Shown here: one piece after another, positions 15,601 to 19,807 of the stretch
How positions within the stretch are numbered: position 1 is the stretch's first letter
Layout: each line of letters begins with the position of its first letter
Assembly: GCA_005223125.1 (NCBI GenBank)
Contig: NJBH01000037.1
Location: 1 to 35,669 of the forward strand
Source: Promethearchaeota archaeon Loki_b32
GTDB taxonomy: Archaea > Asgardarchaeota > Lokiarchaeia > Sigyniarchaeales > SOKP01
Length of the DNA stretch: 35,669 bases
Direction of reading: 5' to 3'
Translations under genes and position numbers: made by a program
Notes under the pieces: generated by a model
Database searches by the model: none
What the model was told of the DNA's origin: nothing
The model's input: only the letters and a program-made list of their open reading frames with translations

Positions 15601-16170
15601 TTGAATTCCCAAAAAATCTTGATGAGTAAAGTCTTTACGTCAGCTGTGGTGATTATCCCTCCTGAAGAAAAATGGGCGCTCATCCAAGAAATTCGTGAAA
15701 AATATGACCGCCAAATCAACAGATGGATGCCTCACATAACTTTATTATATCCTTTTAGACCTGAAACTGAATATTTAACACTTGAGAAAGAATTTTTAGA
15801 GATATGTAAAAATATTAATCCTTTTGAAATTAATCTAAAAGAATTTAAATATTTTAACCACGGAAAACAACAATACACATTATGGTTCAATCCAGAACCA
15901 GTTGTATTGATTAAAAATTTACAAACAACCATTCTTGAAATAGTACCAGATTGTAATGATGTAAATAAATACAAACATGGGTTTAGACCACATTTAAGTG
16001 TAGGTCAAATTCAAGGTAAAAACAAGCTTTTAGAAATCATAAAGAATTTACAAGATAATCTACATGAAATTCATTTTCTCTTAAATGATATATTCTTTAT
16101 TGCTCGTGAAAAAAGTAAAACTTCACAATTTGAAATAAAAAAACGAATTCAACTAAAAACAAATGAATAG
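15601..16170 (+). CDS. 2H phosphoesterase (2'-5' RNA ligase family)
   Basis: Two HxT/S motifs: PHITLLYPF and PHLSVGQ. Confidence 0.85.
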   Translation: MNSQKILMSKVFTSAVVIIPPEEKWALIQEIREKYDRQINRWMPHITLLYPFRPETEYLTLEKEFLEICKNINPFEINLKEFKYFNHGKQQYTLWFNPEPVVLIKNLQTTILEIVPDCNDVNKYKHGFRPHLSVGQIQGKNKLLEIIKNLQDNLHEIHFLLNDIFFIAREKSKTSQFEIKKRIQLKTNE

Positions 16171-16323: not shown

Positions 16324-17259
16324 ATGGTAAAAGAAAATAATAAAACAATGTATTTTAAAGATATTAGTTTTTCTGAATCATTTGAAATCTATGAAATAAA
16401 AGCATTAGTTGATGAATTATTTTCTTTAGATTCTTTACCCGACGATTCTTGGTCTTGTACTTGCCCTCAATGGGCATCTGGACAACAAGAATGTATCCAT
16501 ATAAAGCAATATAAGCAACATAACTTCGATCCTACTTGGCTTCCAGATTTTCCAGATTATAACGATCCTTATATAGATGTTGACTTAGTAAAATTGGGAA
16601 AGAAAGGGGGAACATTTAAAAATTTTGTGGAAGAATATCCAAGATGGGTAATAGAATTTATTCTTAAAAATAATTTAGAAATGGGTTATACAAAAATGGA
16701 GTTAGCTAAAAGTTTAAGAACCACCGATTTCAAGATTGGAAAACTACTTTGGTTGTTAGGAGATTATCACCAACAAGTAAATCAGATGATGAATAAAAGG
16801 ATTTTATCAATCATAGATGAGAATAAAGCTGAAGAATTAATATTCTGGGATAGTCAGATTCTTTCACTTCCCGAATCCATTGGAAATTTTACTAGTGTAA
16901 GGAAGATAGATTTGAGTGGGAATAAATTAACAGGACTTCCCGATTCTATAGGAGATCTTCCTTTACTTGAAATATTGAATTTAAATAATAATTCAATAGA
17001 AAAAATTCCTAAATCTTTGGGAAATTTAAAGAATTTAAAGGAACTACACTTAGTAAATAATAGATTAACCACTCTTCCCAACTCGGTTGGTAATTTGGCT
17101 TCTCTTGAAATTTTAGATTTAAGTTGGAATTATATGTTAGGGTACTTAGGGGAATCAATTTTTAAACTCCCTAGATTAAAAAAATTAATTTTAGAAAATA
17201 CTCCTTTAGAGAAATCAAAATATAAATCCATAGAGGAATTGATTGATTCTCATAAATAA
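16324..17259 (+). CDS. SWIM zinc-finger + leucine-rich repeat protein
   Basis: WSCTCPQW-x-ECIHI (CxC...CxH); about 5 LRRs of the form LxxLPxSIGxLxxLxxLxLxxN. Confidence 0.8.
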   Translation: MVKENNKTMYFKDISFSESFEIYEIKALVDELFSLDSLPDDSWSCTCPQWASGQQECIHIKQYKQHNFDPTWLPDFPDYNDPYIDVDLVKLGKKGGTFKNFVEEYPRWVIEFILKNNLEMGYTKMELAKSLRTTDFKIGKLLWLLGDYHQQVNQMMNKRILSIIDENKAEELIFWDSQILSLPESIGNFTSVRKIDLSGNKLTGLPDSIGDLPLLEILNLNNNSIEKIPKSLGNLKNLKELHLVNNRLTTLPNSVGNLASLEILDLSWNYMLGYLGESIFKLPRLKKLILENTPLEKSKYKSIEELIDSHK

Positions 17260-17340: not shown

Positions 17341-17949
17341 ATGTCAAATGATAAAAAAGAAGGAAAATTAGTGTTCCACCAACGGACTGAGATGATCTTC
17401 AAAATCATTGTTATTGGAGACCCTGCTGTCGGTAAAACAAGCCTTTTGACAAATTTCTGTGGTGATAAGTTTAATTACGAATACATACCGACGGTTGGTG
17501 TAAATATAACAAAGGAGCCCGTCACTATAAAGGATGATATGGGTAAAGATTCTACAGTGAATCTTATGATTTGGGATATAGCGGGACAATGCAATTGAGG
17601 CTTCCTCCTTAGCGTCAACCCACAGTTCTATATGCTACATCGCCCTTACTTTAACGGTGCTGATGGAATGATATTAGTTTATGATATTACACGTTCGAGT
17701 TCATTCTCAAACATAAACAATTGGTGGAGTACTTCAATAAAATATGGGCTTAGCGCTATCCCTCGCATCCTAATCGGCAACAAAATAGATTTAAAAGATG
17801 ATCGGAAGATAATCCTTCCAATGGCGGAACATTTAAGTGAAAAAATTAGCGCACCTTTTTTTGAAACATCCGCAGTAACGGGAGAAAATGTGAAATCAAT
17901 CTTTCAAAAAATAGCAGAATTAGCTTTACGTTCAAAATTAGAGGAATAA
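17341..17949 (+). CDS. Rab-like small GTPase interrupted by a 30-nt in-frame insert containing TGA (192 aa if removed)
   Basis: ORFs 17341-17598 and 17632-17949 are in the same frame. G1 GDPAVGKTS, G2 YIPTVG, G3 WDIAGQ | PQFYMLHRPYFNGADG, G4 GNKID, G5 ETSAV. Confidence 0.88.
17590..17619 (+). other. Putative bulge-helix-bulge-type mRNA intron (30 nt)
   Basis: TGCAATTGAGGCTTCCTCCTTAGCGTCAAC; both junctions fall after the second nucleotide of 3-nt bulges flanking a GGAC/GTCA central helix; the insert itself folds as a hairpin. Confidence 0.6.
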
Positions 17950-18123: not shown

Positions 18124-18735
18124 TTATCCTTTTACAGATAACTTATTAATCCAAAATGTAATTTTTTCTTTAAGCTCGTTTTTTACGTCATCAGCAAGGG
18201 TTTCGAAACTATTTAATTTACTTGCAAAATGACCGATTTCATAGAGGATCCTATGACCTCCGGTGAAAACGAATATATCTTCTTTAATATTTCTTAAACT
18301 TTCAACAACTGGTTGAGGATCGTCATTTTCTGCGATATAGCTTACCAAAGTGTTAAATTGTTCAATTATCGCCTCTTTTTTATCAGTGGCAGATGTATCT
18401 CGTTCAACTGTTTCTCTATTAGCTTCTTTAGAGTGAAATGAAATATCTGATCTTTGAATTAAAGATCTAATTAATTCAAGTTCTTCTTCAAGAATTTTTT
18501 GATTTTCAATAACATTCGTCAATTGAGGTGTTAATGATTTAATATCGAGTGTTGCTTTACTTAACTCATCGATTTTATCAGTAAGTACATTTATTTTCAA
18601 GTTAGTTTGACCCATTTTCGTAATAATATCGAGCCCAAATTTTTCGAGGATCGAGGCAAATTTATCTATTTTTTCATCAGCTTCTTTGATAAATTTAATG
18701 GTATCCTCTTTATCTAAATCATCAGTGTCTCCCAT
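18124..18735 (-). CDS. Hypothetical coiled-coil protein
   Basis: 203-aa helical, charged ORF with an AGGGGA SD-like sequence upstream. Confidence 0.7.
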   Translation of the reverse strand: MGDTDDLDKEDTIKFIKEADEKIDKFASILEKFGLDIITKMGQTNLKINVLTDKIDELSKATLDIKSLTPQLTNVIENQKILEEELELIRSLIQRSDISFHSKEANRETVERDTSATDKKEAIIEQFNTLVSYIAENDDPQPVVESLRNIKEDIFVFTGGHRILYEIGHFASKLNSFETLADDVKNELKEKITFWINKLSVKG

Positions 18736-18937
18736 TGATTTTCCCCTTTAAAGTATTTATTTAATGAGATAATATGATATAAATCAAATAATCTTTACAA
18801 AAATTATTTTGCATTAAAAATTATTATTTAATTAATAATACTATACAGTTCTTATAATATTAGGTTCTTACAAAAAACTTCTTAAGTAAAAAAAATAACT
18901 TGAATTCATTAGTAATGAATAAAAAGTCATCCTCGAA

Positions 18938-19807
18938 ATGATTCAATATATTAACGTGCTAACGAGAGACGGTAAATCGCTTTTATTTAGAAATTATGGA
19001 AGTTCTGATGTAGATAGAGATTTATTAGCAGGATTTTTAAGCGCATTTTCTGGTTTTATGAAGGAGATTAGTCAAAGTGATATTAAGAGTACAGCAACAG
19101 AGGATTTTAAGTATTATTACACTATTATTGATACAATTATCATTGTAGTATGCACAGATTTAGAAGATGATGATGCTACGATTAATTCGAAAATTTTAAG
19201 CATTAGAACAAAATTCATTGAGAAATATGGGAAAATCCTTGAGGATGGTAGTTGGGGGGGAAATCGTAGTATTTTTACTGATTTCGAAAAAGAATTAGAT
19301 GATATTATTTTAGGGGCAATTAAAGTTTCTATTGTTGGATTTGGTGGTGTTGGAAAAACCACTTTAACAAAATTGATATGCGGAAAAGATGTAAATCTTG
19401 AATATGTTCCAACAATAACAGCCGATATTGCTGCTTATGACGGAGATGAATTTGAAAGGTCGATAACATTATGGGATTTTGCCGGGCAAGCTCAATTCAG
19501 ATCCTTATGGAAAAGTTTGCTCCAGGGAACTGATATTACATTACTTGTGGTTGATTCTACCTATGAAAATATTAACAATTCGAAGGAAATAATTCATGAG
19601 ATATTAGATAAATTTTTTCAAGATAAATTAGTAATTGGGATTGCTAATAAACAAGACTTACAAAATAGACTAACACCAGAATTTTGTGAAAAAATTTTAT
19701 CCAGTGAACAACGTGTTATTAAGACTCATGGGATGATCGCTATTGAACCTATGTATCGAGAAAAGATATTAGCAATTTTAAAAGAAGCTATAAAAGAAAT
19801 TTCTTAA
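18938..19807 (+). CDS. Longin domain-small GTPase (Arf/Rab-like) fusion
   Basis: N-terminal longin pattern (DGKSLLFRNY...LLAGFLSAFSGFMKEI); GFGGVGKT, YVPT, WDFAGQ, ANKQD. Confidence 0.85.
   Translation: MIQYINVLTRDGKSLLFRNYGSSDVDRDLLAGFLSAFSGFMKEISQSDIKSTATEDFKYYYTIIDTIIIVVCTDLEDDDATINSKILSIRTKFIEKYGKILEDGSWGGNRSIFTDFEKELDDIILGAIKVSIVGFGGVGKTTLTKLICGKDVNLEYVPTITADIAAYDGDEFERSITLWDFAGQAQFRSLWKSLLQGTDITLLVVDSTYENINNSKEIIHEILDKFFQDKLVIGIANKQDLQNRLTPEFCEKILSSEQRVIKTHGMIAIEPMYREKILAILKEAIKEIS

Follow-up and report, generated by a model that had tools for sequence, protein, structure and literature searches.

A very probable tRNA-type pre-mRNA intron within the coding sequence of a Rab-like GTPase gene of Lokiarchaeia

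Two open reading frames of the forward strand (17341–17598 and 17632–17949) lie in one frame and together look like a single small GTPase gene interrupted in its switch II region, which raises the question of whether the gene is broken, recoded, or spliced at the RNA level. The window, that is, the whole stretch of 35,669 nucleotides analyzed here, is contig C63 of a 4.13-Mb genome with 30% GC (G000 in the labels of this analysis), whose relatives carry the names Promethearchaeota or Lokiarchaeota. When positions 17590–17619 are cut out, the in-frame TGA (17596–17598) is removed and an uninterrupted protein of 192 amino acids results. Exon 1 (17341–17589) encodes Met1 to Gln83 with the G1, G2, and G3 motifs and ends at the switch II Gln, and exon 2 (17620–17949) encodes Pro84 to Glu192 plus the stop codon, with G4 and G5. 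The Pfam Ras profile is divided at the same place, its positions 1–58 stopping at the end of exon 1 and the match restarting at position 60 in exon 2, which confirms the claim of a first-pass annotation, made from the letters alone, that removal of 17590–17619 rejoins two same-frame halves of a GTPase. With its G1–G5 motifs and Ras-family profile, the joined product is a Rab-like small GTPase of the Ras superfamily, and related proteins in Promethearchaeota go by the names Rab family GTPase or GTP-binding protein.

The boundaries of the insert are set by orthology and not by a fold, since 28 relatives found in a first search read WD(I/V)AGQPQFYMLHRPYF without a gap, with nothing between Q and P. 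The ortholog of about 125 genomes of the class is without the insert and joined exactly at WDIAGQ/PQFYML, and, among all excisions of 27, 30, and 33 nt that were tried, only that of 17590–17619 restores the invariant ortholog sequence WDIAGQPQFYMLHRPYF. Support from DNA, which the first-pass annotation had named as a check, was found in the contigs of two studies that cross the insert gap-free, one with 1 difference (X1, possibly the source sample) and one with 13 differences (X5). As the identical 30 nt are also present in two further public contigs (L037, L046), the insert is real DNA and not an assembly error. A protein search for a full-length match identical to the spliced product returned none; the best match reached 97% across exon 2, and intronless DNA assemblies proved to be the source of the top four, which were looked up. 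Within the genome, no further copy of the insert was found even at 8 mismatches, and a repeated mobile element or CRISPR repeat was dropped as a candidate, the insert being single-copy.

[quoted passage not shown] Its central helix pairs the exonic strand GGAC (17584–17587) with the intronic strand GUCA (17614–17617) in three Watson–Crick pairs and a G·A (3/4 pairs), the last position being G-U or G-C in most relatives. The 5′ bulge AAU (17588–17590) and the 3′ bulge ACC (17618–17620) place the predicted cuts at 17589/17590 and 17619/17620, in line with the ortholog-defined junction, and the helix is flanked by 17591G-17613C and 17592C-17612G on the inner side and by 17583G-17621C on the outer side. 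The coordinates, bulges, and pairings listed in the first-pass annotation all proved correct on recheck, and its caveat of a relaxed helix holds as well: the inner helix (5′ strand 17591–17592, partner 17612–17613) has two contiguous pairs, compared with 3–7 in 9 of the 10 other insert families, and this copy misses the canonical 4-bp central helix and flanking helix and falls into the relaxed BHB class only. According to a preprint, relaxed BHBs frequently arise by chance (bioRxiv 10.64898/2026.10.13.758758). Compared with shuffled inserts, the window copy reaches P = 0.025, with a fold z of about −1 to −2. ViennaRNA prefers a register-shifted fold with a 3 × 3 internal loop, the BHB form lying about 5 kcal/mol higher, and the probability of the central helix is near 0 for this copy and 0.4–0.9 in several relatives under an energy model that ignores G·A pairs and protein binding. 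The competing fold anticipated earlier is thus predicted, but as an internal loop and not as a second BHB; likewise, the exon–exon stem described alongside it is present, but its register does not match that of the BHB outer helix. Few members of the insert family are as weak as this copy, and the chance argument from it alone is modest; the strong evidence is the family.

When collections of genomes and metagenomes were searched with a pattern, 20 loci were found to have an insert at this codon boundary, which together with the window represent 11 distinct insert sequences of 30, 31, or 33 nt. All 11 carry a stop codon or a frameshift, and the stop positions vary. The BHB-predicted cuts, between positions 2 and 3 of two 3-nt bulges, coincide with the ortholog-defined junction in 11 of 11 insert families; 40 of 44 central-helix pairs are formed, compared with 11–22 when the partner strand is slid by 1–3, and six of the 11 families have a canonical BHB (4/4 central pairs and an inner run of at least 3). 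In the Gly codon, the third base, which is synonymous, occurs as A, U, G, or C, and its intron partner tracks it in 11 of 12 rows, with changes on both sides at this position (A-U, U-A, G-C) and at 5/5 inner-helix pairs. The covariation score, which is not a formal probability because the rows are related, was 0.455 versus 0.186 for shuffled and at most 0.124 for slid strands, with 24 both-sided cells and 0 of 500 shuffles reaching it. Pairing among the 11 inserts has therefore been kept through compensatory changes, as the first-pass annotation had suggested looking for in orthologs. The last intron base is A, C, or U across the family and the last exon base switches only among Gln codons, which favors the BHB register over a one-base shift. 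An apical hairpin GAG...CUC (17597–17607 here) was detected in 11/11 insert families of the site, with a shuffle P of 0.007–0.036 per sequence, the sequences being related. Its GAG...CUC/CUU form is common to all inserts of the site, and a similar loop occurs in an EF-2 intron; the shared hairpin could mark a common origin or a binding site.

The genome encodes two EndA paralogues (G000 C18:184174–184782 and C2:78428–79045) and RtcB (L073, G000 C48:37255–38562). In one EndA paralogue, the catalytic Tyr, His, and Lys are all present, and one of its loops can be aligned with the crenarchaeal-type K-P-R loop of the best-matching solved structures; the other is without the catalytic His. The crenarchaeal K-P-R loop has been linked to the cleavage of relaxed substrates (PMC12397907). 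Judged from its sequences, the host is predicted to have an EndA of two subunits whose loop is of the broad-specificity kind and which can cut relaxed motifs, together with the ligase RtcB. Several tRNA genes of the genome carry short inserts; contig C48 holds RtcB together with several of them, and ARAGORN assigns many of the genome's intron-bearing tRNAs wrongly.

The insert is very probably a tRNA-type pre-mRNA intron that is cut by EndA and joined by RtcB. The transcript would fold into a relaxed BHB at the junctions, the two-subunit EndA would cut after the second base of each bulge, RtcB would ligate the exons, and the joined mRNA would encode the full Rab-like GTPase including the switch II Gln; we infer this folding, cleavage, ligation, and translation in vivo. 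An EndA-type BHB intron with these exact splice sites had been put forward in the first-pass annotation and is strongly supported by the empty-site orthologs, the 11 covarying inserts, the selection on the exons described below, and the presence of EndA and RtcB.

Alternatively, the gene may be broken or split, with the insert killing the GTPase or giving two half proteins, the second from the ATG at 17632 in exon 2. This reading would suit the lack of the insert in most relatives, the weak BHB of this copy, and the RNA cover of the locus, which comes from one run (X20; a second run, X18, gave no cover) and covers exon 2 only, from 17626, 3′ of the junction, without a spliced read. However, dN/dS was 0.00–0.17 for both exons (0.01–0.17 for exon 1 and 0.00–0.07 for exon 2) in every pair with an estimable dS, including deep carrier–carrier pairs, and, consistent with the earlier statement that five G motifs are intact and other lesions absent, no lesions were found in the alignments of the carriers except further short inserts. 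A dead gene is unlikely given this purifying selection on both exons, the lack of second lesions, and the single close ortholog of the GTPase in the genome. Moreover, 11 independent lesions would not all fall on a single codon boundary and show covarying pairs, and a broken or split gene is considered very improbable. Between very close alleles, dN/dS overstates the selection on this lineage alone, since part of the synonymous divergence consists of recombined patches. The intron itself changes more slowly than synonymous sites, with 1 of 30 intron bases changed between L034 and L045 at a dS of 0.7–1.2. An intronless GTPase copy in L054 (G019:C165) looks degraded, with an altered G4 motif and a stop near the end.

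Recoding without splicing, whether by selenocysteine insertion at UGA, by read-through, or by ribosomal hopping past the insert, could draw on the in-frame TGA, the codon position of which is identical in four related inserts, but other inserts of the site have TAA, two stops, or a length of 31 nt, which shifts the frame, and read-through would put 10 variable residues into switch II. Conserved matching take-off and landing codons, as hopping would call for, are missing, and an Rfam search near the gene gave chance-level matches only, with no convincing SECIS or other element; recoding is therefore regarded as highly unlikely. There is likewise only a slight chance that another enzyme removes the insert or that it is removed from another fold such as the predicted 3 × 3 internal loop. 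For this copy and for L032, that fold is predicted as the minimum, but it is not common to the family, in which only the BHB register is conserved, and a cut one base earlier would turn the invariant Gln into His in three lineages. An assembly or sequencing artefact, in favor of which nothing was found, is scarcely conceivable, as contigs from different studies carry an identical insert and other species have homologous ones.

The Rab-like gene family has four insert positions in all, this site and three others in relatives: an insert of 30 nt with a canonical BHB in the K21 codon (L074, G111:C17 ~96900), one of 38 nt with a perfect BHB after Y93 (L031), and inserts of 30 and 32 nt at the PTVG motif, which fit the BHB poorly and have short direct repeats at their ends (L027, L040). 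Two inserts each are present in L031 and L040. In the window genome, BHB inserts were also found in the genes of EF-2 (30 nt, G000 C3:75804–75833, L079/L082), E2 (31 nt, C30 ~11080), psmA (29 nt, C4 ~22685), cdhD (33 nt, C45 ~47178), and single-copy gyrB (53 nt, C56 ~37030, minus strand); in all five, 4/4 central pairs form in the best BHB register, and removal restores a conserved motif. Compared with 29 relatives, the EF-2 insert is missing from 26 genomes of the genus and present with its helix intact in 4. A second insert of 30 nt with a stop lies deeper in EF-2, after QMTDS, in L084, L097, L100, and L110 (G018, G032, G102, G106). De novo genome-wide scans for a BHB combined with ORF joining showed no enrichment over offset controls, for which reason no intron census is claimed, and the threshold of the first scan left out even this GTPase intron. 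The scan for other same-frame split genes with BHB junctions, proposed in the first-pass annotation, thus gave no de novo signal above controls.

The intron at this site was found in about 5 of the 130 class genomes that have the gene (~4%, a count that may miss frameshifting inserts), and about 96% are without it, including near-identical relatives. Each genus-level carrier has intronless nearest relatives, and the tree requires at least six changes; a deep all-intron clade in the tree is a product of the pattern-based sampling and says nothing on ancestry. An approximate recombination tract (~170 bp, 17490–17685, unstranded) surrounds the intron, 19 of the 24 differences from the nearest intronless relatives lying at most 75 nt from the junction. 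Around the junction, 19 of 150 bases differ, compared with 5 of 372 in the remainder (Fisher P 2e-7; scan permutations, 0 of 20,000), and control pairs are without such clustering; the presence or absence of the intron here thus moved with a short homologous-recombination tract. Regarding direction, the numbers lean to the L060 clade having lost the intron. Most likely the host tolerates the intron as a passenger that selection keeps excisable, and it has probably been gained or lost between lineages at least partly via homologous recombination.

In the HAC1/XBP1 systems, a protein endonuclease and a tRNA-type ligase restore a reading frame; the intron there is conserved, and stress controls the cutting of stem-loops by IRE1. 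The intron described here would share with them the restoration of the frame by an endonuclease and a tRNA-type ligase, but it differs in its BHB substrate and its patchy occurrence. A HAC1/XBP1-like gate on expression, proposed in the first-pass annotation, is unsupported, since the intron is dispensable in most orthologs, the carriers have intronless nearest relatives, and housekeeping genes of the genome have similar introns; the intron is probably not a regulatory switch. A regulated switch on a eukaryotic-signature GTPase, based on a BHB that is weak and has an alternative fold and on the conserved GAG/CUC hairpin, would imply an Asgard layer of mRNA splicing with mini-introns spreading between genes and species and a dedicated reader factor, and is considered unlikely.

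The closest known system is found in Crenarchaeota, where splicing of the cbf5 pre-mRNA intron was shown by cDNA (Watanabe 2002; Yoshinari 2006; Yokobori 2009, PMC2738675). A 2020 study reported cbf5 as the only earlier BHB intron in archaeal mRNA and added a 5′-UTR case (PMC7714728), and in the literature searched cbf5 is the sole archaeal coding sequence with a confirmed spliced intron (PMC7714728, PMC2738675); no paper on introns in Asgard coding genes was found in that literature, the coverage of which is incomplete. Both the cbf5 intron and the present one are short and interrupt a coding sequence at a codon of catalytic importance, frequently with a relaxed BHB whose cut sites, predicted in the present case, lie between the second and third bulge positions, and both show patchy gain and loss in hosts with a hetero-oligomeric EndA. 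In contrast to cbf5, it belongs to another phylum and another gene, that of a eukaryotic-signature Rab-like GTPase, with up to four intron positions per gene family, several intron-bearing coding genes per genome, and only ~4% of orthologs carrying the intron, and its splicing is deduced where that of cbf5 rests on cDNA. The non-canonical tRNA introns of Asgard archaea concern, in the accessible part of their description, tRNA genes only (bioRxiv 10.64898/2026.10.13.758758), whereas here an mRNA is the host, and the motif's exon side has a protein-coding duty as well. The Haloferax HVO_1309 BHB (PMC7714728) is likewise an mRNA element processed by the archaeal splicing endonuclease, but it lies in the untranslated leader and not inside the reading frame.

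If the inserts are spliced, mRNA splicing is routine in Lokiarchaeia, which are prokaryotes closely related to eukaryotes, and extends to the mRNAs of eukaryotic-signature and essential proteins, and many "split genes" in Asgard annotations are intact. The GTPase gene is a good test case, with 11 divergent introns showing textbook covariation at one site and four intron positions, and the near-identical relatives with and without the intron, together with the recombination tract, bear on how BHB introns arrive and leave.

In the neighborhood, a leucine-rich-repeat (LRR) gene (16324–17259) lies between a 2′-5′ RNA ligase gene (15601–16170) and the GTPase gene, and it looks recently inserted, since in the closest relatives (L060–L072) the ligase gene is directly 5′ of the GTPase. 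Downstream of the Rab-like gene (18124–19807), a gene that matches no Pfam profile and an Arf-like GTPase bearing an additional domain at its N terminus were found, an arrangement that recurs in relatives.
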